From contig CAZMSP010000001.1 of assembly GCA_964568985.1 (NCBI GenBank), forward strand, positions 11,179-75,178: DNA of 64,000 bases, given 5' to 3'. The DNA comes from an uncultured Pirellulales bacterium (GTDB lineage Bacteria > Planctomycetota > Phycisphaerae > Sedimentisphaerales > Anaerobacaceae). The notes below the pieces were generated by a model, which made no database searches, had not been told where the DNA came from, and saw nothing but the letters and a program-made list of their open reading frames with translations. Below are positions 13,551 to 38,717 of the stretch, one piece after another. The stretch's first letter is position 1; each line of letters begins with the position of its first letter. Made by a program: the position numbers and the translations under genes.

Positions 13551-14486
13551 TCAGGCAACATAACTGCGTCCGGCTACTCCCTTATTATCTGGATTATACA
13601 AACAGCTATAATAAGAATATTCGTGTGTTTCACTTGTATTTCTATCCGGATAAATCTGCTGCGCCATTTCTTCTTTGTGAGTTGAAACGCCTATAGCCTT
13701 GCCAATTCGTCTTATCAACGATTCCCTAAACCTATCTTGCAGAATCAGTATCACTCCATTACGGCTACAAAATTCCTCTATACTTAACAATCCGCTAATT
13801 AAATTATTGAATCCATTATCTTCATTCAACGGTATTACAACATAAGAGAAGGTTATTATGTCAAATGCGCCAATATTATTTTTAATACGTTGAAGTTGGC
13901 GCATATTGTCAGGAAAAGCATTATTAATACTCATTGTTTGACCGTTAACAATCCTGCCTTGATGCGCATTTTTAATTTTGAAATAGTGTGATAACATATG
14001 TCTACCTGTTCCAAGGCATATCGTTGCTGTATCATTGAGCACATATGTTATTTTGAGTGAGCGGTGCTTTGGATATTTCCCAATATGTACAAGGTAGTCG
14101 ATAATACAAGAAAGTAACTCTGTAATCGCCAAAGAGGCAACTGCTGGCCCCGAACCTATGTCAAGAATTTGAATGCTACCGGAACTAACGATGTCAAGAA
14201 AATCCAAAGAGACTATATAGTTAATTAAACTATTCTGAATCTGCAAAAAGTGCCGAGCAAAGAAAACATCTAAAAATGCTCGCATGCTTGAGGGTGTAGT
14301 TGGATAACGCGTCTCGTCTTCAGAGACTTTCCTTTGTGGTAATTGTAATATCTGCCGTTTCAGCACCGATTTCACAACATCGGTTAATTGCCATACTCCG
14401 TCAGGACATAGCTCTTCTATAATTAGATTTTTCAGTGTTTCATTCATAAGTAATAAAAAATCAAAATATTTCGTGTTCCGTGTCAT
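13551..14486 (-). CDS. class I SAM-methyltransferase-fold protein (substrate unknown)
   Basis: Motif I ILDIGSGPAVASLAI. Visibly AT-rich and rich in I/N/K. An alternative start at ATG 14447 avoids overlap with the upstream gene. Confidence 0.5.
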   Translation of the reverse strand: MTRNTKYFDFLLLMNETLKNLIIEELCPDGVWQLTDVVKSVLKRQILQLPQRKVSEDETRYPTTPSSMRAFLDVFFARHFLQIQNSLINYIVSLDFLDIVSSGSIQILDIGSGPAVASLAITELLSCIIDYLVHIGKYPKHRSLKITYVLNDTATICLGTGRHMLSHYFKIKNAHQGRIVNGQTMSINNAFPDNMRQLQRIKNNIGAFDIITFSYVVIPLNEDNGFNNLISGLLSIEEFCSRNGVILILQDRFRESLIRRIGKAIGVSTHKEEMAQQIYPDRNTSETHEYSYYSCLYNPDNKGVAGRSYVA

Positions 14487-14850
14487 TTTTCCGAATTTGT
14501 CTCTCGATCGCTCGAAGGCGGTATTCGTATGAGATACTCTTGGCAGAAAGTGTCTCGAGCTTGTTGGTAAAATCCTTCTGGCATTGAAGCAGCATCGTTA
14601 CATCGCGCTGCAAAAGGTCCAACTGTCTTTGTAAATTGACCCAGCTTCCCACAATCAATGAAGCCAGAAATACCAACTGGACAAGCACAGAGACATTTAT
14701 CTGGCGATTAAACTGCCAGCTTTTATTGTTCTGACTTTTTGTTTCGCTCATCTTATCTCTCACATCTACTCGTTTTTCAATATCTTCCATCACCACTGGA
14801 AAAATTTGTCCTAATCGTTTCGGCTCAGATTTTCTTTGTTTTTCGTCCAT
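14461..14850 (-). CDS. single-pass membrane coiled-coil protein (hypothetical)
   Basis: 129 aa. One TM segment (VSVLVQLVFLASLIVGSWV) followed by a coiled-coil-like region. Confidence 0.4.
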   Translation of the reverse strand: MDEKQRKSEPKRLGQIFPVVMEDIEKRVDVRDKMSETKSQNNKSWQFNRQINVSVLVQLVFLASLIVGSWVNLQRQLDLLQRDVTMLLQCQKDFTNKLETLSAKSISYEYRLRAIERQIRKNDTEHEIF

Positions 14851-14865
14851 CGCCTCCCTGGCGTT

Positions 14866-15129
14866 TTAAGGTATTGCGTAAAAGACGTTCTTATCGCCGA
14901 CTCTAGACATTAGCGCGTACGTCCCTGATGGAAGTGTCCCCTGCTCATGAAATGGCTCAGCCAGATTAACTGCCTGTGTTTGCTTACCTATTTCGACCGG
15001 CAACGAGCCGGGGCTGCCTATTACTACAACGATGACATTATAGGCGTTGTATGAGCTATGACTTTTAACTTTAATTGCCCAGTCAGCTGCTCTGGCGCCA
15101 GGTGATATAACTGTTGCTATCTCCTGCAT
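14866..15129 (-). CDS. hypothetical small virion-module protein
   Basis: 87-aa ORF tightly spaced within the structural operon (10-15 nt gaps). Confidence 0.4.
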   Translation of the reverse strand: MQEIATVISPGARAADWAIKVKSHSSYNAYNVIVVVIGSPGSLPVEIGKQTQAVNLAEPFHEQGTLPSGTYALMSRVGDKNVFYAIP

Positions 15130-15139
15130 AATCGCTTCC

Positions 15140-16972
15140 CTACATATTACGCTTGCGAATAATTTTCAGGTTTGTGCACTGCTTTACAAAATCCATCTTC
15201 ACTCGCTCGATATAACTTATGCTTCGGTTATCGCCTCTTGTGCCGAGTAAGTCCCTGCTTTCAGGGTTGGTATTGACCCCGTCACCGACCTCATAATCAA
15301 ACGATAGAGTCGGCGTCTGAACATCGACTGTCTCAATAGCCGAAGATAAGACATTCGCCCTGTGGCGGATATATTCATATAACGAAACAGAATCATCAAA
15401 CTCATCAGCAACACCCAGAGCTTCATCGGATGAATTTGCAAAAATACTTTTACCCGACACCTTTTGATACTTGAACCCCCTAAGGGGAGTAATTAAATGC
15501 TCAACCACAGGGATAGTTGAATTTACAGGTCCATCAGCAATCTCGCAGCTTAATCTTTCATCACTGATTACCGATGCGGTTATTCTGAATTTCAATACGC
15601 CTTTTAATGCCGCTACCCAAGTATTAACATCAAGCCGGTCGCTGCTGAGCCATATCCCACACTCATCCAGCAGATTATTAAAAGCATAAAGGTACTGCCA
15701 CCAATGCAGGCCGTCATCGAATGAAACCTGCAGAAAGTAACCCATCGACTTTCCCTGTTTGTCGGTGGTTAGGGCAGGCCAGAAGCGCCTGCGACGGGCA
15801 GCATAATTGCTGCTCTCGAATATCTTTGAAAAATCAAACGCATCACCCCGATTGTACGGCTGACCGCTGTAATCGCCTGCTTCATTGAGACACCATTTGC
15901 GATATACATCCTTTACCTTATAGAAATCAGGATTCGTCGAAGGTGAAAATTTATCATAATCAATATCCTCATCAGCTGGGTCCCAACCCTTGACCAGGTC
16001 AAACGTCGCTTCATAAACCTTAAAATCACCCTGGCCAATGTATTTGCGTGTTACCGGCCAGAAATTTTTCCTGCTGCTTAGTGTTGCTATATTTGTTTTT
16101 GATATGCTAAACTGCTCACCGTGCAGCTGACAGCTTAATTCAACTTCCCTGCCTGCTCCTTTCTTATAAAACACAATTGCCTGACTCGGCCCGGTCTCTG
16201 CGAGGCGCGGTACGAATTTAAACTCCAGGGCAATTCTTTCACAACATCGATGCAGCGCTTCTATAAGATTTAATCCCGTAACATCAAGGTCACGAACTAT
16301 CTGGTTCTCTGTCAGGCTAAATATCCGCTTAATATCGGGTCTCTGCAATTGTCCGGCCAGCAAATACTCACAGAGAAGATAGTCAATCACTTCTGCATAG
16401 CTGAAGAGCTTACTTCGCGATGGCTCAGCACAAAAGGTCGTGAAACTGCTGCCGTTAATTTCTGTCGGCGTTGGACTTGCATTGGCCTTGCCACTAGGAT
16501 TAAATGCAGTATCAAGGCCAGCCAGAAACACGGTCGAACCATCTGAGCTACCCATCCGCTGGCCATATACGGTGATACGTTTCATTATCGTGCTAAAATC
16601 TCTCGCTATAATTTCCACGCTTTCGCCATCGGCGCCAAGTTTTGTCTCGACGCCTTCTATTTGACCTTCGAAGACAGGATGGCTAAAAGCCGCCGCCGCT
16701 GGCGGCATACCGTTAAAGTATCGTCGAATGCTGATAGACCTTCCCATAGCAAATTCCGACTCAATCTCTTCAGCAGTTCTTAGTTCGGCAGCCGGATACG
16801 CTGCTGGATTGTAAACCAATTTAGCCCAGCTAAACTCCGGCCAGCCGTCACGCACAATCTCTACCAGCTCAAGATTCGGACACAATGTCCCATCAAGCAG
16901 AATCGAGACAGTGACACCTGATAGTGCTAACTCGTTTTGAACCGGCTGGAAAAAATCAATTCTATTAGACAT
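15140..16972 (-). CDS. large virion protein (tail/hub-like, unassigned)
   Basis: 610-aa ORF in the structural operon. Assigned by position only. Confidence 0.5.
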   Translation of the reverse strand: MSNRIDFFQPVQNELALSGVTVSILLDGTLCPNLELVEIVRDGWPEFSWAKLVYNPAAYPAAELRTAEEIESEFAMGRSISIRRYFNGMPPAAAAFSHPVFEGQIEGVETKLGADGESVEIIARDFSTIMKRITVYGQRMGSSDGSTVFLAGLDTAFNPSGKANASPTPTEINGSSFTTFCAEPSRSKLFSYAEVIDYLLCEYLLAGQLQRPDIKRIFSLTENQIVRDLDVTGLNLIEALHRCCERIALEFKFVPRLAETGPSQAIVFYKKGAGREVELSCQLHGEQFSISKTNIATLSSRKNFWPVTRKYIGQGDFKVYEATFDLVKGWDPADEDIDYDKFSPSTNPDFYKVKDVYRKWCLNEAGDYSGQPYNRGDAFDFSKIFESSNYAARRRRFWPALTTDKQGKSMGYFLQVSFDDGLHWWQYLYAFNNLLDECGIWLSSDRLDVNTWVAALKGVLKFRITASVISDERLSCEIADGPVNSTIPVVEHLITPLRGFKYQKVSGKSIFANSSDEALGVADEFDDSVSLYEYIRHRANVLSSAIETVDVQTPTLSFDYEVGDGVNTNPESRDLLGTRGDNRSISYIERVKMDFVKQCTNLKIIRKRNM

Positions 16973-17032
16973 ATCTTATCTCGCTTCTCGATATTTGAGG
17001 CTCGACGAGAGTCCAGTATCGAGTATCAAGCA

Positions 17033-17722
17033 TCAGACAGCTTCAACATTCAAAATGTCGATTGCATCCGGATTTATCGTATTAAGCTGGATTCTTAACG
17101 AAGCTTTTGTACTATTCGATACGCCGCTGGTATATTCGGCCCTTATAGCAAACAGGTATTTATCCGCGTCAAGTGCGTTAGTTAAATAGCTGTAAAATCT
17201 CCGTCCCTCATAATCCATCGTTGCAATAGGGCTTTCATAGTCGATTTGACCCGTTCCACCATCATAATAAATCCTGAAATACTTTGGCCCGGACTTTTGT
17301 CCGACAGGGCAATAATACCAGAGCAGCTGTACCTTATCGCTGTCCACCTGTCTGGCATACCGGCTGAAAATCTTATTTGGCTGCGGCTTTATCAGGTTGC
17401 CATCGGCATCTATTGAGACTTTAATCGCGGCAGATAATGTATGTTCCTGGTACCCGCATCTATTGACCCGACGAACAACATAGAAATATGTCGAGCTGTT
17501 ATCATGCGCAAGATAGCTCGGCGGCGAGATTGTGTCGGCATTTAAGTCGGCCACCGCCAATAGATTATCAAAATCTATTCTTTCCATACTGGGCCCGCGA
17601 TGAAGCACTGAGCAGCCGGCAATGCGCATCCAGAACCAGCCCAAACTAAGCACAGTTCCGAGCTTGAAGGCATTGGCTGTCATGCCGGAGAATAAAGCAT
17701 CTTTTTGCCACTTGGATTCCAT
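17033..17722 (-). CDS. virion protein with GTGQIDY motif domain
   Basis: 229 aa. RIYYDGGTGQIDYESPIA is paralogous to IYFDAGTGQIDYDAPLN in ORF 20825-21601. ATGA stop/start overlap with the upstream gene at 17720-17724. Confidence 0.5.
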   Translation of the reverse strand: MESKWQKDALFSGMTANAFKLGTVLSLGWFWMRIAGCSVLHRGPSMERIDFDNLLAVADLNADTISPPSYLAHDNSSTYFYVVRRVNRCGYQEHTLSAAIKVSIDADGNLIKPQPNKIFSRYARQVDSDKVQLLWYYCPVGQKSGPKYFRIYYDGGTGQIDYESPIATMDYEGRRFYSYLTNALDADKYLFAIRAEYTSGVSNSTKASLRIQLNTINPDAIDILNVEAV

Positions 17723-18177
17723 CAGTTGGGCGTCCTGGTTAGAGTGGATTCTCCATCGGTTGGAGTATGAGTCAAGATAACAGTCTCACCATCGTCATCG
17801 TAGTAATCAATTTTGCCGGTCGATTTCTCTTGGACAGCTTTATTAGCAAGCATCTTATCAGCAGTCAGCTCACCACTGACCGTCCAGATTATTTCGCCGC
17901 TTCCTACAAGGTCATCGCTGTCCGCAGGATTAGCTCCTGTCTGTAAGAATACTTGAATCGTATATCGCCCAGAAGAAATGTTGGTATCTAAATCGCCAAC
18001 ATATCTATCACCATCTTTATTAGTCAGGGATATATCATAATCATCAGCATCCCGACCGCTTGTGCCCCAGCTCTCGAAGACCTGCCCTGCCACATACCAT
18101 ACCTGTCCTACACTATTACGGACAACTGCATAAAGCGTGTTGCCTGATTCATAATCTACATGAATTTCATTTGCCAT
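17722..18177 (-). CDS. hypothetical virion protein
   Basis: 151-aa ORF, translationally coupled to the downstream gene. Confidence 0.45.
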   Translation of the reverse strand: MANEIHVDYESGNTLYAVVRNSVGQVWYVAGQVFESWGTSGRDADDYDISLTNKDGDRYVGDLDTNISSGRYTIQVFLQTGANPADSDDLVGSGEIIWTVSGELTADKMLANKAVQEKSTGKIDYYDDDGETVILTHTPTDGESTLTRTPN

Positions 18178-18198
18178 AAATTATGTCCCTCTTGGTTA

Positions 18199-19974
18199 TT
18201 ATGCCTCTGCCGTCCATGTTCCAAGTGCATCAAATTGCTCCCATTGACCAGCTTTTACACATTTTAATAAACAGCTTTCACCCGCCGCATCTGCCCAAAT
18301 GTGCTTACCAGCATCCTGCTGCGTGCCGTTAATTGCAATAGTTTCCGAACCATAAGGGTCGATACGCAATTGGTAAGTGGCCATAACGATAAATCTATAT
18401 TCAAAACCAGGAATCGCAGGGGGCAATGATAGCGTAATATCTCCGGTCGCTTCTTCGTTCGTATAACTATGGCCATTGTCGAAGGCGTAAACTGTTGTAT
18501 CTGCTGTACATTTAGCTGGCATAATTGGATGGTTTCCTTTGATTTGTGGTCTATCTGCCCCGCCCTCAAAAAACTTTTCTGAGTGTATATCATCAATGTA
18601 ACCTGAACCGTCCCCTATCTGCGTAACTGTTATTAAAGCTGCAACATCCCCATTCCCTTCTAATAAGGCTTGAAGCTCAGTTGCTGTTTTTTGCAGTCCA
18701 GTGGTCTTTTTTACAGAGATTTGTTTTCCAGACAAACTGACCGACCATCCTGGTGGTACATTAAATACCTTAAATGAAATCTGATTTCCATCCTTCCCAA
18801 TTGTTTTTGCAGTCATAGTTATGTTTGAATTATCCCCTCCTGTAAAAGCTGTTGTATGTGTAGCCTGCTCTCCATCTATTGCTATTAAATTACTACAAGC
18901 TTTTGAAATACCACGAGCATACTCAGAATCGTATCCATACCTGCAATTTATAATTTTCGCATTACCGCAAATACCTTTAGAAGAACCGCCCCCCATACCA
19001 AGGGATTTATAATTCTCTCCTAAATACTTATCAAGTCCATCGACACCCTTCCCAGAAACAACACAGTCTATACATTGGCCAGCAAACTTAGCATTGACTC
19101 CATCATAGGTACTACCCGCAGCGAAGCTTTGGAGGCCTGCTATACATCTAATTGCAAGTCCGGTAAATTGTCTTTGCAACGCCCAGGAATTACTACCACT
19201 CATACAATCAATAAAAGTACCGCTACAGTTACAGCCCCAGGTTCCGCAACCTCCGAACCCCCCATACCCTGTTATACAGCGGACAAATAATCCGCTACAG
19301 TCAGCACCAGCAGTATCGCCTCCAAAAGATTGATAACCATACCAAGTACTAAACGCACTACTATATTGTCCAATTTCATCAAACCAAGATATACAATCGA
19401 ACATCTTAGCTTTTAATTTTTTATTTGCTGCTACACGCCAAGCCCAACCGGTCGCGTGGCAATTTATCCAGGTACCACCTAAATCATTGGTACCAAATAC
19501 AGGAAATCCCTTTTTTGCGCTTGTGGAAGTTCCTATAAAGTGCATATTTTGATAGAAACTTGGGGTATTGTCTGATGCCGTGATTTCAAATCCAAAATCC
19601 GTTCCAGAACCTTCACCTGTCGTCTCTATAGTAAAGTTGCTTAATTTTACATCACTGGCACTTTGATTTACCGCAGAACCTCCTGTGCCTCTCGTTATGA
19701 TGCTATCTGTTGCATGACCTGATACTCCAGTAATATCCACATAATCTGTATCAAGTTCTAATTCTGCCGTAAGAATATATTTCCCTGGAGTAAGAATTAA
19801 TGTTCTACGATTCGTTGCCGATAAAGCCCCCATTTGACCATCGCGGTTAGATGATTTCAGCCAGTTATATTTAGTAATCAAATTATCACCAGGATTCATA
19901 CAAACAGCATTTTTGAATCCTATTGATGATGGCAAAACACCGCGTGCAGGAGGTCTAATTGTTGGAATAAGCAT
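18199..19974 (-). CDS. tailspike/fibre-like protein with beta-helix-like Gly/Cys-rich repeats
   Basis: 591 aa. N-terminal TLILTPGKYILTAELELDTDYVDITGV pattern typical of right-handed beta-helix proteins. C-terminal ~70 aa is paralogous to ORF 20018-20806, and both end in GTWTxEA. Confidence 0.55.
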   Translation of the reverse strand: MLIPTIRPPARGVLPSSIGFKNAVCMNPGDNLITKYNWLKSSNRDGQMGALSATNRRTLILTPGKYILTAELELDTDYVDITGVSGHATDSIITRGTGGSAVNQSASDVKLSNFTIETTGEGSGTDFGFEITASDNTPSFYQNMHFIGTSTSAKKGFPVFGTNDLGGTWINCHATGWAWRVAANKKLKAKMFDCISWFDEIGQYSSAFSTWYGYQSFGGDTAGADCSGLFVRCITGYGGFGGCGTWGCNCSGTFIDCMSGSNSWALQRQFTGLAIRCIAGLQSFAAGSTYDGVNAKFAGQCIDCVVSGKGVDGLDKYLGENYKSLGMGGGSSKGICGNAKIINCRYGYDSEYARGISKACSNLIAIDGEQATHTTAFTGGDNSNITMTAKTIGKDGNQISFKVFNVPPGWSVSLSGKQISVKKTTGLQKTATELQALLEGNGDVAALITVTQIGDGSGYIDDIHSEKFFEGGADRPQIKGNHPIMPAKCTADTTVYAFDNGHSYTNEEATGDITLSLPPAIPGFEYRFIVMATYQLRIDPYGSETIAINGTQQDAGKHIWADAAGESCLLKCVKAGQWEQFDALGTWTAEA

Positions 19975-20017
19975 TTTTATTTCCCTTCATCCCGCTCTTC
20001 GCAAGGGCGGGGTTCAT

Positions 20018-20806
20018 TTACGCTTCTTCGGTCCAGGTTCCATTCTTGGCTATCGTTGTCCAGTTGCCGTTAGAATCGGCTACTAAAGTAATGCAAGCGC
20101 CTATGGTATTGGCTGATTTGTATTTATCAGCAGTTTGACCACTATCATCCCGAATAGTCACTGTGCCGGGATCAACCCGCAGCTCTTGTGTTGATTGAAC
20201 CGCAAATGTAAACACTGTTCCTGCAGGAGCTGATGCGGGTAATGTGATGGTAATTACACCGGTGGCGCCGAGATTTGTATGAACACTACCAGATTGTGCC
20301 GCTGTAAGTGTATCGTCTGTGGTATACACCTCGATTTTCTTCTTCACTCCACCGGCTCCATACGGCATAACGATATTATGACCAGCCCGACAGTCGGTTA
20401 TCGAATCTATATCACCACTTGACGTACTTACTATCGCCAAGCGGATATGAGGCGTGATCGCCATATCCGGGAAGCTGCTGTATTCGTCGGTGATAAGATT
20501 GCCAACTGGGTCCAGATAGACATAAATATTCGCTTTATCATCCGCTAAGGTATTGCCCGACGAGCCGGGGAAACTAACCAGCTCCGTACCAAGCCAGAAT
20601 GCCCCTGCCTTGACGCCTATATTCAGTCCACCCTCGTCATAGACCCGTAAATCATTCGCACGCCGCACAGCGAGCAATAACCGATACAATAATTTTCTAA
20701 AGTGCAGATAATAGGGTGCTGTACCGGTCGGTATATACTCAACACCGGTTTCGCCGTCAGATTGTATATTTAACAGTTCGTTGTCGGATGGATATACTTC
20801 AGCCAT
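20018..20806 (-). CDS. fibre/receptor-binding-like virion protein
   Basis: 262 aa. Shares the C-terminal domain (..LRVDPG..TI..G..A.KY....G.C..L.....G.W.....GTWTEEA) with ORF 18199-19974. Confidence 0.5.
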   Translation of the reverse strand: MAEVYPSDNELLNIQSDGETGVEYIPTGTAPYYLHFRKLLYRLLLAVRRANDLRVYDEGGLNIGVKAGAFWLGTELVSFPGSSGNTLADDKANIYVYLDPVGNLITDEYSSFPDMAITPHIRLAIVSTSSGDIDSITDCRAGHNIVMPYGAGGVKKKIEVYTTDDTLTAAQSGSVHTNLGATGVITITLPASAPAGTVFTFAVQSTQELRVDPGTVTIRDDSGQTADKYKSANTIGACITLVADSNGNWTTIAKNGTWTEEA

Positions 20807-20824
20807 AATTTTCCCCTTGTTATT

Positions 20825-21601: not shown

Positions 21602-21606
21602 TGCCT

Positions 21607-21987: not shown

Positions 21988-22003
21988 AATTTGTCCTTCT
22001 GCA

Positions 22004-30165: not shown

Positions 30166-30232
30166 TAGAAAGACTTTGTTTGGTTTCAGACATTTCAGAC
30201 TTGCAGATGGGAATTGCCGGCAAAGTATCGCC

Positions 30233-30889: not shown

Positions 30890-30998
30890 CGTTATGACCC
30901 TTTCTACTCCGTTCTTGGGCATTAAACAGCGATTTTGTGTGTAAAGCTTGGAATGGCCTTTGCCGAGCTTCCATACCCAGCCTTCCTTGGTAAGCATA

Positions 30999-31028
30999 TA
31001 TCTAAAAGGATAAAGTAGAAAATGTCAA
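30999..31028 (-). promoter_or_regulatory. candidate promoter TTGACA-18-TAGATA for PEP-CTERM gene 30233-30889
   Basis: On the minus strand, -35 is at 31023-31028 and -10 at 30999-31004. Confidence 0.35.
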
Positions 31029-31112
31029 GGGAAAAATCGGCGGATGGAATTAATATCTTCTGGATGTGGTTTTGGCTGTTTGGGTGTAATTAACGAAGGA
31101 ATAGGTAGAGAG

Positions 31113-31646
31113 CTAAATGAAGCCCTTGTTTTGGATAGAGTCTGTCTGGCCCTTATGAATCCATATCTCGCGAAATTTTTTGGTGTATTGCCGACCTAAT
31201 CTGCTTTGAGTCAGGCCAATTTGGTCTAAAATCTCCTCTAATGAAATGCTTTGTTCGCCTTTTCCGAGTAAGCCGAGAACTTGGTAAACTGCTTTATCGC
31301 CAGAACATAAAAGGTACTGCTCGGAAGAGTTACATAGAAATGCCAAGGTTTCTTTTTCTCCAGCGTGAATTATAGCTTTGTACAATTCATTAAACTTATC
31401 AAGAAATGATTTTGCTGTAGAAGGTTCGATATCAAAAATGTTAACTTTGTCTTTGTATGATTCAAGATCTATTCTGACATCTTCGAATTCTTGGCTAGCC
31501 CATTTAGCTTCATTCGCTACTGTTTGCGAAATTGAAACATCACATCTTTTAAGAAACTCGTCCCAAATACCCAATTCAAAGAGCGTGATAATCGGCCCAG
31601 CGTCAAGTAACAGAAATTGAAATTTTTTTATCCTTGAAATCCTCAT
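31113..31646 (-). CDS. PIN-like (DUF4411-type) nuclease-fold protein
   Basis: Acidic PIN-like motifs LLLDAGPII, NEA, GEKETLAF and CSGDKAV. ATG 31646 overlaps the upstream ImmA gene by 44 nt. Confidence 0.55.
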   Translation of the reverse strand: MRISRIKKFQFLLLDAGPIITLFELGIWDEFLKRCDVSISQTVANEAKWASQEFEDVRIDLESYKDKVNIFDIEPSTAKSFLDKFNELYKAIIHAGEKETLAFLCNSSEQYLLCSGDKAVYQVLGLLGKGEQSISLEEILDQIGLTQSRLGRQYTKKFREIWIHKGQTDSIQNKGFI

Positions 31647-32703
31647 CTTCCGCAAGATATTCCTGGGCCTTTTTATAACTTATTCCCATGTATTTAGCAA
31701 ACTGCATAAGAGATAGTTTTCCTTCATTAAGAGCTCGCTGAGCCAAATCGCAATATCTTTCAGGCAATCTAGCCGGCTCATATGATGGCCTTGGCTTATG
31801 CGTTTGTGCAAGTCTTTTAGCAGCATCAAGGTATTTATCAGTCTCATCCTTTTGAATCTTGAAAAGTCGGGCTATTCGATAAACAAGCGCATCCAAAGAA
31901 ACGTCAAATTCCCTTGCTATGTCGTCCAGTTTATCCAAGCTTGTCTGGCCTTCATCGTTCAGGCTCTGTTTAACTCTATCTTTAATAGATTCTTCCGGCA
32001 TTAGAAGTCGACTTGCAAATGCATTAGCAAGTTTATCCTCATCAATATCTGCGATTGTATTCTTGCCTCTAAAAATATTCCACGTCAAAATATGAAATAG
32101 TTCATGAGCGAGGTCATAACTTCGTCGCCATTGTTTGTTCTTGGCATTAAGAAGGATAGAAGGACCGAATTCTTTAGATACTACCGATATAGCACTTCCA
32201 GAGAAATCCAGATAGAATATTTTTATATAGTAGACTTCTTCCAGTCTACGTTTAAGAGATGCAATAGGTACGTCACCAAGACGGAATATATCCTGCACCT
32301 TCTTCGCGAATAATTCAGCTTGGTCATAATCAAATTTTTCAATTTCATTAATATCTGGCGCTGATAACCTAGGCTCTTTGACTTCGTCCATAAGTATCTC
32401 AAGATTGTGATATTGTTGGCAGAGTTGCTTAAATTCTACCTCAGTTTTCTTCCTTTCTTCATCGGTGCCCGGCTCGTCACGCCAGAGCATTATTTCTTCT
32501 GGCAGTAATTTATCAGTCAAAAAGAATTCTATCGTTTTTCTATAAACCTCGGCTAACTTGCTAAGATGCGAAAATTTTGGCTCTCGCTTGTTGTTTTCGA
32601 ATTCACTAAGAGATGACTGGCCGATACCGCTTTCCTGAGAAGCTTTCTCTAATGTGTAACCGATAGATTCTCTCGCATTTTTTAACCTTTTGCCGATTTC
32701 CAT
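31603..32703 (-). CDS. XRE-family HTH fused to ImmA/IrrE (COG2856) zinc metallopeptidase
   Basis: N-terminal HTH LKNARESIGYTLEKASQESGIGQSSLSEFENNKR. HExxH site HELFHILTW. 366 aa. Confidence 0.85.
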   Translation of the reverse strand: MEIGKRLKNARESIGYTLEKASQESGIGQSSLSEFENNKREPKFSHLSKLAEVYRKTIEFFLTDKLLPEEIMLWRDEPGTDEERKKTEVEFKQLCQQYHNLEILMDEVKEPRLSAPDINEIEKFDYDQAELFAKKVQDIFRLGDVPIASLKRRLEEVYYIKIFYLDFSGSAISVVSKEFGPSILLNAKNKQWRRSYDLAHELFHILTWNIFRGKNTIADIDEDKLANAFASRLLMPEESIKDRVKQSLNDEGQTSLDKLDDIAREFDVSLDALVYRIARLFKIQKDETDKYLDAAKRLAQTHKPRPSYEPARLPERYCDLAQRALNEGKLSLMQFAKYMGISYKKAQEYLAEDEDFKDKKISISVT

Positions 32704-32833: not shown

Positions 32834-34348
32834 TCAATACCTTCTTGATACGGTTTTGGCTGGTTGGGTGTAATTAACGAAGAAATAGCGTAAGGCGTCG
32901 ATGGGATGGTCGTATAGGCCGTCTTTCAACGGCAGCTCATTATCAGCAGTACCCGAATCCGGATAATGATAACAACGCAGGGCCTCTATCAAGCGGGGGC
33001 ATCTGGGTAAGATAATAAGCGAGTTTTTGCCGTCGCCACGGCGGATGGCCCTTCGAATAAGCTCGATGCCCTCAAGGATAGTGCTTTTGCGATAGCGAAC
33101 CTGTATGCCGAGCGAACGCAGTTCGCGAACGGTACTCGTGCCGGTGACATCATTCACACCGGCACCGGCTGGGTCGCAAAAGGTTGCTGCCACTTTTTCT
33201 TCACTGCAGGGCGTTCTGGTTTTCAACTCATCGGCATGGACATCAACCGTAGCCCTTGTGCGGACATACTCATCTATCACCCGCACGACGCCGGTACTAT
33301 CGACCTGAATCCATAAGCATACAAACGGATTGACAAAGCCGAAATCGAGCGAGCGATACAAAGGCAGATTCGGGTCATAATCGATAGACTTAACATGCGG
33401 GTCAGGGTCGAACTCGTTAAAAACGATGTTTTCCAGCGAAGGTCTTTTGCATAGCATCTCCGCCTCGAAAGCCGCCCTGCTTGCACGGCGCATCTGCGTA
33501 ATACAATCATCAATTTTCAGATAGCCGTTTGCCCGTTTTGCCTTGCCCTGGCAATCGCTCCATAAGGGACACTGCGAGCAGTTTCTGTCGGTGCATTTTT
33601 CGATTACCTCCCAGACACACCATTTGAAGACCGGCGTGTCAAGCTTTTGTGCATCTGAGACGATTTTTTGCATCAGGCCGTATGGGCGGTGCATCGTGCT
33701 GATGGTCTCCATCGCAGCGATGATATTGTCCGTGCTTTGTGTTGTGAACTTCGCAGCAGAAAAGACATCTTCATCAAAAAGCTCGACCTCATCGCAGCGG
33801 AGCTTCTGGATGTGCTGGCCTCGAACACTTGTCGCCGACTGCGTCAGGACCTCTATGGATGAGCCATTTATAAATCGGCATTTTGTTTTTAGAGCCGGAC
33901 TGGAGAGAAACTCGTCAAAGCCATTGTTTAGGAAGCTGGTCATATATTCGTACATCCTGCCGGATTGTTCGCCCGAGCCGCCGAGGATTCTGATGCGGCA
34001 GTCGGGCTTAAAGATACAGTCTAAAAGCGTTGCGACGGCAGCTAATTCGGTCTTGCCGCCGGCCCGGTTGGCCCAGACAACGCAATCTGCGTTTTTTGTC
34101 CCTCGTCTCTCGTCCCTCGTCCCTCGTATATGTGCAAGGTCTGCAGTGAAGCTGTGCCAGAGATAGTCCATAGGTGCATTATGCTCTGGGCAGATTCTTT
34201 CGTTCGGGATGTCGATGCCCAGAAAAACCTTGGCGTAATTTTTTAGATCGTGTCTTGTCGCTGGCAGAGTCCGTCTTAATTGGTGATAAGTATGTGCGGC
34301 CTTGTCGAGGCCTGCAGACATCGGTTCAAATAGCGTCAGATTTGACAT
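32834..34348 (-). CDS. terminase large subunit
   Basis: Walker A-like ANRAGGKTE and Walker B-like LRCDEVELFDE. About 500 aa. GGAGG 9 nt upstream of ATG 34348. The ORF is open to GTG 34399. Confidence 0.8.
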   Translation of the reverse strand: MSNLTLFEPMSAGLDKAAHTYHQLRRTLPATRHDLKNYAKVFLGIDIPNERICPEHNAPMDYLWHSFTADLAHIRGTRDERRGTKNADCVVWANRAGGKTELAAVATLLDCIFKPDCRIRILGGSGEQSGRMYEYMTSFLNNGFDEFLSSPALKTKCRFINGSSIEVLTQSATSVRGQHIQKLRCDEVELFDEDVFSAAKFTTQSTDNIIAAMETISTMHRPYGLMQKIVSDAQKLDTPVFKWCVWEVIEKCTDRNCSQCPLWSDCQGKAKRANGYLKIDDCITQMRRASRAAFEAEMLCKRPSLENIVFNEFDPDPHVKSIDYDPNLPLYRSLDFGFVNPFVCLWIQVDSTGVVRVIDEYVRTRATVDVHADELKTRTPCSEEKVAATFCDPAGAGVNDVTGTSTVRELRSLGIQVRYRKSTILEGIELIRRAIRRGDGKNSLIILPRCPRLIEALRCYHYPDSGTADNELPLKDGLYDHPIDALRYFFVNYTQPAKTVSRRY

Positions 34349-34612
34349 TGCTGTCACCCTCCATTGATAAGGCAAATTTTTTTGCTTTTTTTCCAACACA
34401 CTTCTATAAACTGCGTATACTTTATACAGATAGACTTATATGAGACTGTGCTTCATGGGCTGGCGCTGCTGTGGGCCTTGGAGGCACAGATGATGATACA
34501 AGAGAGACGAGTCTGGACAGATATAAAGAAAAAATATAAAGAACGGACCACCGTCTCTCTTTTTTTGCATCTCTATTGATTTGCGCAACATCCCTCATCC
34601 ACAGAACTACAT

Positions 34613-34629
34613 CACTATTTGGCAAAAGG
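34613..34629. repeat. 17-bp direct repeat CACTATTTGGCAAAAGG flanking the MTase cassette (copy 1)
   Basis: Matches 35313-35329 at 16 of 17 positions, exactly 700 bp away. Confidence 0.75.
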
Positions 34630-34663
34630 ATTATCTCATCAATAGCGGCTAATCTTTGCGTTT

Positions 34664-35296
34664 TCATCTTTTCTCCATAAAAGCATAGTTTGCAAGGTGG
34701 GAAACAGATTTACCTTTTATTTCTATTGTCTTTAATTCATCTATTTTGAAGTGCGGACTGAAGAGGTCTCTCAGTTCATCCTCAGATGAGAAATACAAAA
34801 CAGTTCCCAGTGAAGTATTTCTGTATTTTCCTTGGCCTCCAAATTGGGTGCCCTTATCGCTGAAACAAACAGAAAGGTACTTTCCTCCAGGATTAAGCAT
34901 TCTATAGACGCTTTGAACGTATTTGTCCCTTGTCTGGGGGAAAATATGATGCAGCAACTCCCACTCATAAGCAAAGTCAAAGGCCTCGTTAACTTTATCC
35001 AAATCACTAAGAACGTCAGCTACAAGAAAGTGGCACTTTACTCCCTTGACCTTGGCTTTTTCCTCGGCAATTTTTATCGCCGTCGGGGCAATATCTACTG
35101 CTGTGACATCAAATCCCATGCTCGCAAGGTAAATAGCGTGATTGCCAGCACCACAGCCTAAATCAACAGTTTTGTAGGGTTTCACTTTTCCACTCTCTAC
35201 TAACCGGACCAGAGCGTCTGGAGGGACCTCCATATTCCAGGGAATCTCTTCAGGAGGCAGTTCTCTGTAAATTCTGTCCATTTCTTCCTGCTGCAT
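34664..35296 (-). CDS. class I SAM-dependent methyltransferase (TehB/Methyltransf_11-like)
   Basis: Motif I VDLGCGAGNHAIYLA. 210 aa. Confidence 0.8.
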   Translation of the reverse strand: MQQEEMDRIYRELPPEEIPWNMEVPPDALVRLVESGKVKPYKTVDLGCGAGNHAIYLASMGFDVTAVDIAPTAIKIAEEKAKVKGVKCHFLVADVLSDLDKVNEAFDFAYEWELLHHIFPQTRDKYVQSVYRMLNPGGKYLSVCFSDKGTQFGGQGKYRNTSLGTVLYFSSEDELRDLFSPHFKIDELKTIEIKGKSVSHLANYAFMEKR

Positions 35297-35312
35297 AGTA
35301 CGGTAGGCACTC

Positions 35313-35329
35313 CACTATTTAGCAAAAGG
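35313..35329. repeat. 17-bp direct repeat CACTATTTAGCAAAAGG (copy 2)
   Basis: See 34613-34629. Confidence 0.75.
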
Positions 35330-35451
35330 TTCGTTTTTATGAAATCTTATTAAACATAAGTTTAATTAGCGAATTTTTATTAAAGATTTTGGGCAAAAAG
35401 TTTAATAAAGGCGTCGGATTTAGCCCGTTATCCTGATATCCGGTTCTCCTG

Positions 35452-35925
35452 CTACCTGATTTCCTGATCATCTGTCTTCTGCTCCTGTGCTAAGACTTCC
35501 AGAATTTTGCTTGCGGTTTCCGGCGATAGGCCGCCTGCGGCGGATTCGTCCATCGTCCCTCGTCTATCGTCACTCGTCTCCCCTCGCACAACCGGCTGCA
35601 TAGAAATAATATCAAGGCAGGCCTTGCGGGCGGTCTCTTGATTTTCCGATTCAGTAAGCTGAACGAGCTTCGCCGCAGCTAAGGTGGCGTACCTCGCAAC
35701 CAAAGCGGCGCTCTGTCGATAAGCAGCGGCGATGCGTCGGTCAAACTGCTCAGCGAAACAATCATCGGTAAGCCATTTGTAATATTGGTTTCGACTCACA
35801 TTATATTTTTCCAGCACGGCCTGCTCATCCAGCTCGCCGCTAAATATCTCATCGAGCATTGCTTGCTGCTTCTTTGTAAGGCTTGTCCGCCGTCTTTTTG
35901 GCGGATTCTTTGTTTTAGCCATCAA
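35452..35925 (-). CDS. small DNA-binding protein, terminase-small-subunit-like by position
   Basis: 157 aa. Basic N-terminus plus HTH-like EKYNVSRNQYYKWL. Lies upstream of TerL. Contains an in-frame NTCGTCN heptamer array at 35545-35586. Confidence 0.4.
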   Translation of the reverse strand: MMAKTKNPPKRRRTSLTKKQQAMLDEIFSGELDEQAVLEKYNVSRNQYYKWLTDDCFAEQFDRRIAAAYRQSAALVARYATLAAAKLVQLTESENQETARKACLDIISMQPVVRGETSDDRRGTMDESAAGGLSPETASKILEVLAQEQKTDDQEIR

Positions 35926-35941
35926 TGATTACTCCTTCTCG

Positions 35942-36682
35942 TCAAGGCGTAGGCCTTGACGTAACCTGAAATCCCAAAAGGGCCTTGATTTGTGCCTGTT
36001 TGTGGTCGAGGTAATATTGGCAGATAGCCGACAGTGCTGATGCTCTTTTGGTTGCTTTTGTCCGCCTGTCGTTTGGTGGGTTGGTATATGAATAGTCAAG
36101 AACCCCAGTCCTGTCCCTGATAGGGGCGGGATTGTCCTGCAGAGCAAAATTAAGCGCGGCTTCAATGACCTGTTGCTGCTCGTCACTTACGAAAAAGACC
36201 AGCGGATTTGAAAAACTTAATGCTCGATACTCGATGCTCGATACTTGTTGGGAGTCGAGCTTGATTAGTTTTTCGAGCTGGGCTTTTGTCTGCGGCAGCA
36301 GCTTTGCAAGTTCACTTGTTTGCATTCGCTCGTTGAGCCGTTTTAGAAGTGCGAGTTTTTTCTCAAGCACATCTTGTCCACAGAGCCGGTTAAGCGTTGC
36401 AAGCAGTATGTCTGCCTGCTCATCGTCAATGTCCCAGACGATTGCATCTGCCTCTTTTCTGCCAAGCTTTTTTAAGGCCAGCCAGCGATGATGGCCGTTG
36501 ATAATCTGAAAACAATCTGGATGCTCGATACCGGATACTGGACGGACAATCAAGGGCTCATATCGGCCGGTCCGCTCGATGTTGCGAACGAGCTTTGCAA
36601 AATTTGCCTTGCTCATTCGGTTAGGATTAGCAGGATGTGGGGCGAGTTTGTCTAAGGGTATTGACTGAATCTGATTTGTCAT
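35942..36682 (-). CDS. ParB N-terminal-domain (ParB-like nuclease/CTPase fold) protein
   Basis: IPLDKLAPHPANPNRMS ... GRYEPLIVRP ... INGHHRWLALKKLG motifs. Confidence 0.8.
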   Translation of the reverse strand: MTNQIQSIPLDKLAPHPANPNRMSKANFAKLVRNIERTGRYEPLIVRPVSGIEHPDCFQIINGHHRWLALKKLGRKEADAIVWDIDDEQADILLATLNRLCGQDVLEKKLALLKRLNERMQTSELAKLLPQTKAQLEKLIKLDSQQVSSIEYRALSFSNPLVFFVSDEQQQVIEAALNFALQDNPAPIRDRTGVLDYSYTNPPNDRRTKATKRASALSAICQYYLDHKQAQIKALLGFQVTSRPTP

Positions 36683-36718
36683 ATTTCTTAATTCTAAATT
36701 CTCAATTCTAAATTCTTA
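36683..36718. repeat. ATTCTNA heptamer array spanning the GNAT stop codon
   Basis: atttctta attctaa attctca attctaa attctta. Confidence 0.7.
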
Positions 36719-37446
36719 CTGAGCCATATGTAATAGACCGGCCTGTCGGTCAGTTTGCTCAGTATGTATCTTGTCCTTTCTGGGCCCGGCGGCATCATTC
36801 TACGTTTGCCGTAGCTTTGCAGAAAGCGTCTTATTTCAAGCTCGATAAATTCAGATTGTTCTTTTGGGAGCTTGTCAAGTTTTCGCTGTACATACTCGGC
36901 ATCGATGAGTTGATGTCCTTCTATGCCGGCGAGGTTGAACGCCTCGATGAGTCGTGAGCATCTTGCGGGAGTTTTTGCATTGTATGGCTTCATTCCGGCT
37001 TTTTCAAAGAACGGATTTATCAGTCCCATCACCGCCATCGCCTCGATGATGGGGACATTGAGCAGGGGCATTGTCTCGCTGACTAATCGAGTGGCCAGGC
37101 CGAGCGAGCGGAATCTCGGCTCAACGATAACCCTGCTTATTCTGCGGATATTTTTATTGATAAGCGCCAGCTGAGTGCTTCTATCCAGGCCGACGAATAA
37201 ATCGCCGGTAGCAATATTGCGAAGCTCAAGCGCAGGAGTCGGCATTGTATAAGCGATAACACCGATAGTTTTTATGCCTGCTCGCTGAGCCAGCACAGAA
37301 TCGCCCCTAAGCGCAAAGATGACGGCAAACGGCCCCAGCCGAGAGTCACGGTAGTGGTAATGTGACAGCGATTCGTAATCCTCGATGTTGCCCGGGACAA
37401 CCTGCAGTCTTTTACATATTGAGCAGCTTTTTCGTCGTACGTCCAT
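36694..37446 (-). CDS. GNAT-like acetyltransferase-fold protein
   Basis: Motif A-like ISRVIVEPRFRSLGLATRLV (R-x-x-G-x-A). 250 aa. Fold assignment is tentative. Confidence 0.5.
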   Translation of the reverse strand: MDVRRKSCSICKRLQVVPGNIEDYESLSHYHYRDSRLGPFAVIFALRGDSVLAQRAGIKTIGVIAYTMPTPALELRNIATGDLFVGLDRSTQLALINKNIRRISRVIVEPRFRSLGLATRLVSETMPLLNVPIIEAMAVMGLINPFFEKAGMKPYNAKTPARCSRLIEAFNLAGIEGHQLIDAEYVQRKLDKLPKEQSEFIELEIRRFLQSYGKRRMMPPGPERTRYILSKLTDRPVYYIWLSKNLELRI

Positions 37447-37497
37447 CGTCTATCGTCCATCGTCCATCGTCTGTCTTCTGACCTCTGACTTCTTATA
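37431..37497. repeat. ATCGTCN heptamer array spanning the ATPase stop and GNAT start
   Basis: ttcgtcg tacgtcc atcgtct atcgtcc atcgtcc atcgtct gtcttct gacctct gacttct. Confidence 0.75.
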
Positions 37498-38124
37498 GAT
37501 AACCTGCGTCTCGCCTGACAGCTCTTGTACGACCAGAACATCAGGTATCAGGTCGAGAAGTATGTCATCGTGGCTTGCCGCCAAGACAAATGTCACGCCT
37601 TTTCGTTTTGCAAATTTGTGTATATTGTGCGAAATCACAGCAGCGGTAATGCGGTCGAGGTTTGAGCAAAACTCATCTGCGAAAATAAATTTTTTACCCT
37701 CTGCAAGTGCCATCGCTATGCGGAACCGGTATTGTTGGCCTTCGCTGAGATTGGCCGGCTGATTGAGAATGCGGAAGACGTCGTTGAGACCTGCTGTGCT
37801 GAGTGTTCTAAGGCAGGAGAGAAAGTCACCATCAATACAATCGATGAGGGTTTTGTCTCTCGGAAGTTTTATTCGAGCGAGGTTCACTCTGTCTGATGCA
37901 GGGATTGATTTTTCCAGCTCACCCAACAGTACGCTTTTACCTGCACCCGATGGGCCGGTGATATAAACGATGTCACCATCGTTGATTTGAAGTCGGCAGT
38001 TAAAATTGATATGATTATTCTTGAGCCGGTCCACTGTCAGGCCGAACATCCTGCAAACCTGAGCGACCTTGTCGCTAATCCGTCCATTCCATTGAAAGCT
38101 TTTTGATATACTGTATGTCGGCAT
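37450..38124 (-). CDS. soluble ABC-type ATPase (no permease partner)
   Basis: Walker A GPSGAGKS, ABC signature LSEGQQ, Walker B FIFADEF. ATG 38124, with the ORF open to TTG 38148. Confidence 0.8.
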   Translation of the reverse strand: MPTYSISKSFQWNGRISDKVAQVCRMFGLTVDRLKNNHINFNCRLQINDGDIVYITGPSGAGKSVLLGELEKSIPASDRVNLARIKLPRDKTLIDCIDGDFLSCLRTLSTAGLNDVFRILNQPANLSEGQQYRFRIAMALAEGKKFIFADEFCSNLDRITAAVISHNIHKFAKRKGVTFVLAASHDDILLDLIPDVLVVQELSGETQVIYKKSEVRRQTMDDGR

Positions 38125-38174
38125 AGCTCCTACTTCATTATTTTTCAATCACGAAATATACAGATTTCACCGAT

Positions 38175-38717
38175 TTATTTTTTATTTTCTGCGGTTTCTT
38201 TTTTCTGGTCTTCTTTGTGGCTTTGTGTCTTCATGGCTAATATATGTTGTTGGATTTTTTTTATGATTTGTCGAGTTCGATGGTACGTCCATTGTCGTTT
38301 TGCTGCGATTTTTCTTATTGACAGGCCCAGCAGAAAGTACTCTTTTGCGATAATCATTTCGTTGGCGGTTAATTTGTCGCGGTTTCGTAGACAGGCGATA
38401 TATTTCCCATCTATCAGCCGTTCGATAATCCCGTTTATTCTTCGAGAGATGCTTGTCTCATCCATTCCAGCCAGCCGACCCATCTGACGAAAGCTATTGC
38501 TGTTGTCCAGATACATTGTCATCAGCAGTTTATCTTTTCCTTTGAGCAGATTCACCCTGTTGTGCAAAAGTTCGATTCTGTCGCGATAATCGGCCTTTGT
38601 TTTAAGCGTCTTTTGCGAGAGGTTATCGTGAATTTTTTCCGTCCCATTCTCTGTAGCACTGCGACTCGTGCTTCGCAGCGCTTCGCAGAGTAGCAAGGGT
38701 GAATTACGAACCATCAC
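38175..38717 (-). CDS. sigma-70 region-4/LuxR-like HTH regulator (two HTH segments)
   Basis: SFRQMGRLAGMDETSISRRINGIIERL and LSIRKIAAKRQWTYHRTRQIIKKI. GGAGG RBS. The N-terminal 25 codons are encoded by REP-like copy 38660-38697. Confidence 0.5.
   Translation of the reverse strand: MMVRNSPLLLCEALRSTSRSATENGTEKIHDNLSQKTLKTKADYRDRIELLHNRVNLLKGKDKLLMTMYLDNSNSFRQMGRLAGMDETSISRRINGIIERLIDGKYIACLRNRDKLTANEMIIAKEYFLLGLSIRKIAAKRQWTYHRTRQIIKKIQQHILAMKTQSHKEDQKKETAENKK

Follow-up and report, generated by a model that had tools for sequence, protein, structure and literature searches.

The stretch of DNA analysed here, hereafter the window, comprises 64,000 nucleotides (nt) of contig CAZMSP010000001.1 from an uncultured planctomycete, and the block at 13551-39070 within it is likely to be a domesticated, vertically inherited, phage-derived particle system (i.e., a viriform) of Sedimentisphaerales-type Planctomycetota, most likely one that resembles a gene transfer agent (GTA). 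The block is made up of two modules, one specifying the head and tail (14461-26465) and the other DNA packaging (32834-39053), with about 6.4 kb of non-virion genes in between. Several of the features by which GTAs and other viriforms are recognized occur together here: resident structural and packaging genes, no genes for replication, integration or excision, and vertical inheritance under purifying selection. An earlier sequence-only reading had proposed a domesticated particle locus, and the fixed genomic position of the modules, their separation in other genomes, the selective constraint on their genes and the co-divergence of these genes with their flanks all favour that view.

Neither edge of the block has the character of a prophage border. 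On the left, the convergent plus-strand gene for a spore-photoproduct-lyase-like protein (SPL, 12453-13547) ends 3 nt from the stop codon of the first minus-strand open reading frame (ORF) at 13551; on the right, the functional edge reaches a promoter at 39053-39026, beyond which a spacer with a G+C content of 36% leads to the start of aspS (39853-41667, plus strand). Both flanks consist of housekeeping genes (purF, purM and SPL on the left; aspS, a histidine kinase [HK], coaD, PTPS, McsA/B, DnaK, MnmE and YidC on the right), and the whole window contains no tRNA gene, such that the borders are as they had been described. The absence of integrase, replication, tape-measure and endolysin genes was borne out by scans of 29 ORFs against Pfam, PHROGs and NCBIfam, several of these ORFs being without assigned function, and none of the unassigned ORFs proved to be an integrase, replication or lysis gene. 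The claim that a repressor is also lacking stands in a modified form, in that the nearest candidate, a gene with helix-turn-helix (HTH) and M78 peptidase domains, scores as RmrA of the RosmerTA system and so does not represent prophage immunity. Similarly, the minus strand does carry every sizeable ORF from SPL to aspS, along with the virion genes expected, but the supposedly uniform 25-kb virion block is interrupted at 26535-32703 and 34422-35296 by genes that have no part in a virion. The base composition of the modules (G+C 0.470 and 0.486) is close to that of the host genes (0.473), and their codon usage is largely host-like (correlation of relative synonymous codon usage [RSCU], r = 0.73 for head-tail and 0.82 for packaging genes).

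If the element occupied its present site through recent insertion, empty sites might be expected in related genomes. SPL, a host gene, served as an unbiased query against metagenome contigs, and the head-tail genes directly follow it in 64 of the 70 informative SPL-centred loci, in the shared order variable slot, g129, g87, hub (g610), g229, receptor-binding slot, g262, g258, g126, g218 and major capsid protein (MCP). The six exceptions contain a homologue of g311 or a 2.4-kb insert and then reach the end of the contig, and no empty SPL site could be demonstrated among the 70 loci (one, L128, was not assignable), nor was an empty site with att scars shown. Contigs centred on the capsid gene have the same gene order, and the 3-nt gap between stop codons at the SPL junction recurs in three of the comparison loci (L084, L087 and L088). 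Loci centred on the gene for the large terminase (TerL) read HTH gene, ABC gene, p886, ParB-like gene, small terminase (TerS), gap, TerL, an optional RosmerTA cassette or a 247-aa gene, and then aspS, HK, coaD and PTPS. The neighbourhood of TerL followed by aspS-HK-coaD occurs in many species, and the packaging module usually lies beside aspS. The synteny comparison that the sequence-only reading had called for therefore gives fixed positions, next to SPL for one module and next to aspS for the other.

That these two positions are neighbours is peculiar to some genomes. The closed chromosome CP070715.1 has its head-tail module at 0.62-0.64 Mb and its TerL module 1.1 Mb away, at 1.73-1.75 Mb; in VRUL01000001.1 the distance is about 140 kb, and in both records host genes stand immediately before the portal gene. 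From this split and interrupted arrangement, it follows that the element cannot excise or be packaged as one genome. The packaging segment of the window is itself inverted relative to the common arrangement, which is retained by a relative whose aspS is 93% identical (L005); a search for inverted repeats at the boundaries of this inversion found nothing convincing. A third arrangement of the modules occurs in L091 (SPL 84% identical), in which p886 and the ABC and HTH genes lie on the other side of SPL and u210.

Patterns of substitution, obtained as Nei-Gojobori estimates on codon alignments taken from the loci, show that the element genes are constrained to the same degree as their neighbours. 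Every gene is saturated at synonymous sites (median pS about 0.70), and the dN/dS values are those of unsaturated pairs. Values for MCP (pN 0.077, dN/dS 0.048), g262 (0.115, 0.075), TerL (0.153, 0.099) and the hub (0.180, 0.116) bracket those of the host genes aspS (0.122, 0.081) and SPL (0.148, 0.100), and all particle genes fall between 0.048 and 0.20, a range like that of the flanking housekeeping genes. The full-length matches used contain no in-frame stops, and all 76 TerL sequences compared have the same Walker A, Walker B and coupling motifs and the same three acidic residues of the nuclease. The capsid and terL genes, for which an estimate of selection had been recommended, are therefore under purifying selection, with no relaxation or frameshifts seen in their orthologues.

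Divergence of the element genes also tracks that of the host. Mantel tests on pairwise protein distances (all reported p ≤0.001) gave r = 0.76 for hub vs. SPL, 0.78 for TerL vs. HK and 0.56 for TerL vs. aspS, as against 0.81 and 0.57 for the host-host controls u210 vs. SPL and HK vs. aspS, respectively. Distances among element genes thus follow those of adjacent host genes about as closely as host genes follow each other, which would be the opposite of what recent spread leads one to expect, although the physical linkage of the genes compared limits how far this pattern can prove vertical descent.

Domestication is also favoured by host-type repeats, whose presence in the spacers of the block, and in frame in TerL, TerS and the ParB-like gene, had been remarked upon and is confirmed. 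The word-repeat and REP-like families (D4 and D6-D11) have copies both inside and outside the block and comprise ATCGAG/CATCCAG words, CGTCC/CTCGTC words and GCCGAAGGCGG hairpins, which also occur in intergenic spacers. In-frame sites lie in TerL (34092-34131), TerS (35547-35609), the ParB-like gene (36213-36262) and the portal gene (26087-26112), and further copies at 5656, 5784, 45432, 52884, 55528, 59698, 60835, 60907 and 63065. The copy in TerL corresponds to a hypervariable indel linker, at which other lineages hold different low-complexity inserts. The spacers flanking the capsid gene form stable hairpins (z = -3.2 and -3.5), as does the portal leader (z = -4.9). Elsewhere in the window, families D1-D3 form the seven 165-nt tandem units of a 432-aa FG-GAP repeat protein (4290-5588).

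The distribution of homologues further ties the system to this group of hosts. The MCP family falls into more than 120 distinct clusters (defined at 90% identity) that are 85-89% identical, with almost all sequences having exactly 384 aa, and its named sources are metagenome-assembled genomes (MAGs) of Phycisphaerae, Sedimentisphaerales or Planctomycetota. The hub family has 1083 members of about 609-612 aa, and its named sources are all Planctomycetota, Phycisphaerae or Sedimentisphaerales but for one record labelled Coxiella sp. DG_40. TerL relatives come from 275 species-representative genomes, all of Phycisphaerae/Sedimentisphaerales type, and the best 80 of them are 70-86% identical and include three closed MAG chromosomes. 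Viral databases, namely GenBank phages and IMG/VR, yielded no close free-phage counterpart: among 50,697 GenBank phage records, the nearest MCP is at most 30% and the nearest TerL at most 25% identical, and no hub homologue was found. A single record in IMG/VR (2.9 million viral contigs) contains MCP and hub, and this is a provirus call taken from a host contig of 102 kb; the closest TerL there is 36% identical. In full-text literature searches, neither GTAs nor domesticated phage particles turned up for Planctomycetota, Phycisphaerae or Sedimentisphaerales; the phage of strain ZRK32, described in an eLife paper, is a different, chronic one.

Conservation extends to noncoding sequence. Upstream of the head-tail operon is a bipartite regulatory module (26331-26465, minus strand) consisting of two identical 20-mers, TTTCGACCAAATACGCAGGT, at 26445-26465 and 26333-26353. 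The boxes are spaced 112 nt apart and enclose an AT-rich core, and CCAATTACAGAG follows the proximal box. With equal spacing, this module precedes the portal gene in six other lineages (among them L033, L087, L088, L169 and L170) and also stands before packaging genes, the gene in question being p886 in L012 and L013 but the ABC gene in L073 and L075. An alignment of ten copies spans 167 columns with scarcely a gap, and their mean identity is 68% despite the saturation of synonymous sites in the genes. The head-tail and packaging copies of CP070715.1, 1.1 Mb apart, share lineage-specific variants of the boxes, which points to one factor controlling both operons. A search of the window for a third copy of the boxes returned only weak, chance-level matches (7 found vs. 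3.5 expected).

The packaging operon of the window has a sigma-70-type promoter (39026-39053, minus strand; TTGACA, 16 nt, TG-TAATAT), and a like promoter, AAAATACTTGACAATGTT...TAAAAT, lies upstream of the HTH180 gene in L022, L026, L072, L087 and L091, this conserved promoter occurring where the packaging operon starts with the HTH gene. HTH180 (38175-38717) is the first gene of the operon and encodes an HTH resembling region 4 of sigma-70: it reaches E = 1e-4 against region 4 of TIGR02937, which is below threshold, and its family profile matches RpoE 9n9q (0.02) and 2lvs (2e-5). Because its homologues are 136-150 aa long, translation probably begins downstream of the GTG at 38717. By analogy with GafA and GafYZ, HTH180 is a candidate for a dedicated activator acting on the boxes. 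As to regulation, then, what is seen is a shared bipartite module and a sigma-like HTH gene behind a sigma-70-type promoter.

One portion of the head-tail module evolves in an entirely different manner. What fills the slot between g262 and g151/g229 varies among genomes, and the neighbours of the slot on both sides remain 75-88% identical. In the window, it is occupied by g591 (18199-19974), which encodes a receptor-binding protein resembling a beta-helix tailspike or depolymerase; in other genomes, it holds one to four genes, often Laminin_G_3 lectin-like. The AlphaFold2 (AF2) model of g591 (pLDDT 90.5, pTM 0.86) consists of a right-handed beta-helix, an alpha/beta domain and a C-terminal beta-sandwich, for which Foldseek returned pectin methylesterases, alginate epimerases or polysaccharide lyases, and phage tailspikes (7chu, 6c72, 6f7d). 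Only 38 homologues were detected, identity dropping fast to 30-60%, and the last 100 aa are 39% identical to the C-terminus of g262, representing a shared domain. Such a variable slot fits the need to recognize changing cell surfaces, and its diversification argues that the particles may well be made and used.

Several explanations other than domestication for gene transfer need to be considered. The sequence-only reading had allowed for a decaying prophage remnant, in this case one awaiting deletion, and the locus does lack lysogeny, replication and lysis modules and has foreign genes inserted between its modules. However, dN/dS values of 0.05-0.2 with saturated synonymous divergence, near-identical gene lengths across more than 100 lineages, the lack of in-frame stops, invariant catalytic residues in TerL and conserved noncoding regulatory modules are the opposite of decay, and we reject this view as scarcely credible. 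Very improbable, too, is that the block belongs to an active family of temperate phages, integrating site-specifically beside SPL or aspS and owing its position to a shared att site and recent spread. Intact ORFs for a complete complement of head, tail and packaging genes, their contiguity in the window and the single provirus call in IMG/VR are what such a family would produce; but the locus yielded no integrase or excisionase, no CI/Cro switch and no gene for replication or lysis, no tRNA is present, and the sole long direct repeat flanks the RosmerTA cassette rather than the element. Moreover, distances of 1.1 Mb and about 140 kb separate the modules in the two long records, host metabolic genes occur within the packaging operon, synonymous sites are saturated with divergence that follows the flanking genes, and no related free viral genome was found among GenBank phages or in IMG/VR.

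More difficult to separate from a GTA is a domesticated particle whose function is something other than transfer, such as a PBSX-like killer, a device for DNA release or biofilm formation, or a polysaccharide-degrading particle, in which the capsid and terminase would have been kept for assembly or as a by-product. All of the evidence for domestication serves this explanation equally well, a hypervariable tailspike/lectin cassette is what strain-specific targeting needs, and no recipient-side uptake genes were identified. We nevertheless consider it unlikely, in that the TerL motifs, TerS and portal are under strong purifying selection, so that packaging itself looks selected, and known killer tailocins, unlike this locus, have lost their capsid and terminase genes. 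(A tailocin in the strict sense was ruled out, the capsid, portal, TerS and TerL being present and strongly conserved.) The constraint on TerS, TerL and portal equals that on the capsid, which makes it probable that selection acts on DNA packaging; a GTA-like role is therefore the most likely function.

A number of observations weigh against a domesticated, GTA-like system. That host DNA is packaged and delivered is an expectation drawn purely from the gene content. In the window the modules are contiguous over about 25 kb, and a T=7 head could in principle hold both, making self-packaging possible in this genome. Because the flanks are physically linked to the modules, joint exchange of whole regions would also give co-divergence, and distances for MCP are uncorrelated with those for SPL (Mantel test, n = 11, over a narrow range). 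The codon usage of the head-tail genes is less host-like than that of the packaging genes (RSCU r = 0.73 vs. 0.82). A gp27-like hub normally comes with a tube and a tape measure, yet neither a tail tube nor a tape-measure gene was recognized; seven conserved ORFs are without a fold assignment; and no lysis genes were recognized in the locus, though these may be located elsewhere in the genome, as in the GTA of Rhodobacter capsulatus (RcGTA). Finally, three closed MAG chromosomes aside, all of the comparisons draw on MAGs or metagenome contigs, and pattern-based scans favour close relatives.

GTAs of the RcGTA type (Rhodobacter capsulatus, Caulobacter crescentus) offer the closest parallel to the domesticated system proposed here. 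Both are phage-derived clusters without integrase, replication or in-cluster lysis genes; both show order-level vertical inheritance at conserved loci, host-like purifying selection and a distribution over more than one locus; and both have variable receptor-binding appendages, with the candidate sigma-region-4-like activator of the present system comparable to GafA/GafYZ. The two share no sequence homology, however: the capsid here belongs to SU10_MCP/DUF5309 and that of RcGTA to Phage_capsid (PF05065), no prohead protease, tape-measure or tube protein was recognized here, the ancestral phage lineage is a different one, with ParB, ABC ATPase and p886 genes in the packaging operon, and the host belongs to another phylum, within the Planctomycetes-Verrucomicrobia-Chlamydiae (PVC) superphylum. 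Membership of the RcGTA-like family (Rhodogtaviriformidae) was ruled out on these grounds (capsid PF17236, and no match to a protease, a tape measure or any RcGTA-type Pfam or PHROG family), and the domestication would be an independent one. In RcGTA, particle production, the small capacity of the head and DNA transfer have been demonstrated, whereas the present system is known from its genes.

Other defective phages kept by their hosts that package DNA and do not propagate themselves (Bartonella BaGTA, Brachyspira VSH-1, Desulfovibrio Dd1, Methanococcus VTA and Bacillus PBSX) are alike in concept but unrelated in ancestry, and PBSX and VSH-1 have long or contractile tails and linked lysis genes. 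To our knowledge, none of these is known from Planctomycetota. With respect to the capsid, the nearest structures that have been solved are those of SU10/Kuravirus and of Bruynoghevirus (Pa223, LUZ24-like), whose capsids belong to the same family, PF17236 (9ny2, 1.5e-22; 7z45), and the Pa223 capsid spike (9ny6) matches part of the g591 model. These are autonomous lytic phages of 45-77 kb, however, with an MCP identity of at most 30%, and the hub has no sequence homologue among phages.

Turning to the individual genes of the packaging module, all of which are on the minus strand, TerL (32834-34399; Terminase_6C, phrog_2) has intact ATPase and nuclease motifs. TerS (35452-35925; phrog_2538, 4e-10) has an N-terminal HTH and, in 42 of 53 informative loci, lies upstream of TerL at a distance of 0.3-9 kb. 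The ParB-like gene (35942-36682; ParB_N, PF02195, 2e-10, and many ParB-like PHROGs) is syntenic with TerS, p886 and the ABC gene. The protein encoded by p886 (36694-37446; phrog_886) shows a GNAT-like motif by eye, its distances correlate with those of TerL (Mantel r = 0.81), and its relatives occur about 2 kb upstream of TerL in Rhizobium RHEph10-like phages. Next to it is the gene for a soluble ABC-type ATPase (37450-38148; phrog_293).

In the window, the gap between TerS and TerL (34422-35296) contains an 81-aa ORF and the gene for an S-adenosylmethionine (SAM) methyltransferase, which is not a conserved member of the locus. Matches of this methyltransferase and of the ABC ATPase to the MADS defence system were dropped as generic domain matches. 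In many genomes, the gap instead holds a host-type arylsulfatase (about 480 aa) and a secreted protein (1100-1475 aa), which place the terminase genes 5-9 kb apart; inserts of this sulfatase type occur in L010, L011, L012, L013, L015, L022, L035, L044, L072 and L073.

The head genes, like those of the tail, are also on the minus strand and had been correctly recognized from the sequence, in that TerL, portal, scaffold, an HK97-type capsid protein and a beta-helix tailspike-like protein are all confirmed by Pfam/PHROG scans, AF2 and Foldseek. The portal gene (24579-26162; SPP1_portal, 4e-17; phrog_64, 2e-23) encodes 527 aa from an internal ATG at 26162, the true start, as its homologues share the start motif MGF(E/D)L. 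These homologues are mostly 511-531 aa in length, and those of one lineage (L084-L086) have 388 aa. Adjoining the 388-aa portal gene on the opposite strand are a PF03592 (Terminase_2) small terminase, which may be a non-orthologous replacement of TerS, and an HTH_Tnp_1_2 protein; beyond these come HxsD/radical-SAM genes and a gene for type I restriction-modification. A 29.5-kb metagenome contig (L001; Ga0315551_10000564), which matches the window exactly over the region shown, begins within the portal gene, its assembly break falling near the structured, repeat-rich portal leader. The scaffold gene (23990-24523) is syntenic everywhere and matches Phage_scaffold and phrog_194, both weakly. MCP (22752-23906) belongs to the SU10_MCP/DUF5309 family with an HK97 fold (PF17236, E = 1e-87), matching the family model over its full length at 294.6 bits vs. 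a gathering cut-off of 24.1, and PDB sequence matches are 9ny2 (1.5e-22) and SU10 7z45.

Eleven ORFs of 13551-22660 have no match in Pfam, PHROGs or NCBIfam (a weak Big_13 signal in g258 aside), and structure prediction gave folds for two of them, g591 and the N-terminal part of g610. As single sequences, g610, g218, p886 and HTH180 yielded nothing useful in PDB sequence searches. The g610 product (15140-16972) is the tail hub or central spike, with an N-terminal domain like gp27/VgrG/Mu gp44. Its AF2 model has an overall pLDDT of 44 and attains moderate confidence only for residues 21-285; because the rest of the model is unreliable, the hub assignment is limited to the N-terminal 285 residues. 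For this part, the top Foldseek matches are all baseplate hubs or spikes (E = 3e-5 to 1e-3), including gp27/VgrG, Mu gp44, and the spikes of extracellular contractile injection systems (eCIS) and of Photorhabdus virulence cassettes. Because this fold is gp27/VgrG-like, the label 'podovirus-type' previously given to the particle is not established.

Directly after the capsid gene is g218 (22004-22660; dN/dS 0.115), which has 218 aa in every locus and, from its position, could be a head-tail adaptor. It is accompanied by g126 (21607-21987; dN/dS 0.160), a small conserved virion or connector protein; g258 (20825-21601; dN/dS 0.139), a conserved virion protein with the weak Ig-like signal; and g262 (20018-20806), a highly conserved virion protein that is 75-84% identical across loci. 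Beyond the receptor-binding slot, g151 (17722-18177) encodes a tail protein at the edge of the slot that is present in a subset of loci at 53-80% identity. Its stop codon overlaps the start of g229 by 1 nt, the sequence being TGATG and not, as had been noted for 17720-17724, an ATGA overlap. The g229 gene (17033-17722; dN/dS 0.178) encodes a conserved tail protein and is syntenic in all head-tail loci. Directly after the hub gene, g87 (14866-15129) encodes a small conserved protein (61-84% identity in 54 loci, dN/dS 0.113) whose position suggests that it may be the spike tip. The last conserved gene of the tail operon, g129 (14461-14850), lies beside SPL in nearly all SPL-centred loci; it has no family match and encodes a small protein with one transmembrane helix (as judged from the translation) and a C-terminal coiled coil, for which a holin-like, spanin-like or membrane-penetrating role is conceivable.

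The variable slot between SPL and these conserved tail-end genes is occupied in the window by g311 (13551-14486), which has a motif resembling those of SAM methyltransferases, no Pfam or PHROG match, and homologues in some loci only (45-82% identity); it is probably not a core particle gene. Elsewhere, the slot is empty (26-95 nt) or contains the 2.4-kb insert, which consists of a 152-aa gene, a 406-aa gene and a ParB-like gene. The 406-aa product resembles PP-loop proteins/PAPS reductases, and variants of the slot occur in L097, L106, L117, L128, L134 and L137. Beyond the insert, L128 has a 481-aa gene and then a dCTP-deaminase-like gene.

The genes between the two modules (26535-32703) encode two PEP-CTERM proteins, a PfkB kinase, a 247-aa protein of unknown function, and an HTH_3+Peptidase_M78 protein with a 180-aa partner. 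The PEP-CTERM proteins, which are secreted, are encoded at 26535-27338 and 30233-30997, the first having internal repeats of 54 and 111 nt. The PfkB gene (27691-28677) adjoins the portal gene in L032, L033, L047, L050, L055, L059, L064 and L087 as well. A 61-nt intergenic repeat, CCAAAGGCGAAGCGGGGCCGCTCCTCCTCTGAACGACT...TTATTGTAG, is present upstream of PfkB (27439-27499) and, at 77% identity, upstream of dnaK (46760-46820), and may be a shared regulatory or small-RNA element.

The last two of these genes form a RosmerTA-like cassette (31113-32703, minus strand), in which a gene of the RmrA type (HTH+M78, 31603-32703) overlaps that of the 180-aa partner (31113-31655). The HTH_3+Peptidase_M78 protein matches RmrA models at 5e-34, and this match and the overlapping small gene are the points of likeness to RosmerTA; unlike the RosmerTA toxin, the 180-aa partner matches neither known RmrT nor any other family. 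On either side of the cassette is a 53-nt copy of the 3' end of TerL, forming a direct duplication (31052-31104 and 32836-32888, 89% identical) that persists as decayed copies in L021, L012, L059 and L011. The cassette is found in some related genomes only, always directly after TerL. The possibility that the HTH+M78 protein is a prophage repressor was ruled out by this optional occurrence, constant position and flanking duplication; the pair is probably an inserted defence or toxin-antitoxin cassette and lies outside the particle system.

Assembled into a sequence of events, these features suggest how the system might operate. The head-tail operon is anchored at SPL/purMF and the packaging operon at aspS, two neighbourhoods that are adjacent in this genome, where an inversion has put all of the genes on one strand. 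The sigma-70-type promoter would drive the packaging operon including its first gene, and the HTH protein encoded by that gene, or some other dedicated factor, would then act on the bipartite module such that the dispersed operons fire together. With portal and scaffold as a base, procapsids would be assembled and filled with DNA by a headful mechanism through TerS and TerL, and a short tail bearing the polysaccharide-binding or -degrading tailspike would be attached. We infer that particles are produced; once released, they would bind to related cells, with the variable tailspike cassette deciding which.

A more specific proposal, to which we give somewhat less than even weight, is that the locus represents a new, independently evolved family of GTAs, the first in Planctomycetota and the PVC superphylum. 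Such a family would have arisen from a phage with an SU10-type capsid, would form a two-operon regulon with its own sigma-like activator and bipartite promoter module, would be distributed over an order-level clade of Sedimentisphaerales from anoxic sediments, and would use swappable tailspike/lectin cassettes to set its recipients. We know of only a handful of independent domestications of phages into GTAs, none of them from Planctomycetota.

If this proposal is true, a new family present in hundreds of uncultured sediment species would be a further, independent case in which to ask what leads cells to retain 'selfless' viral particles and how they do so, and would also explain why virus-prediction tools may mislabel or miss such loci in planctomycete MAGs. 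The compact regulator gene, the promoter module common to dispersed operons and the natural series of swapped receptor-binding cassettes provide handles for experiments. The particles themselves would possibly constitute a major route of gene exchange in anoxic sediments.

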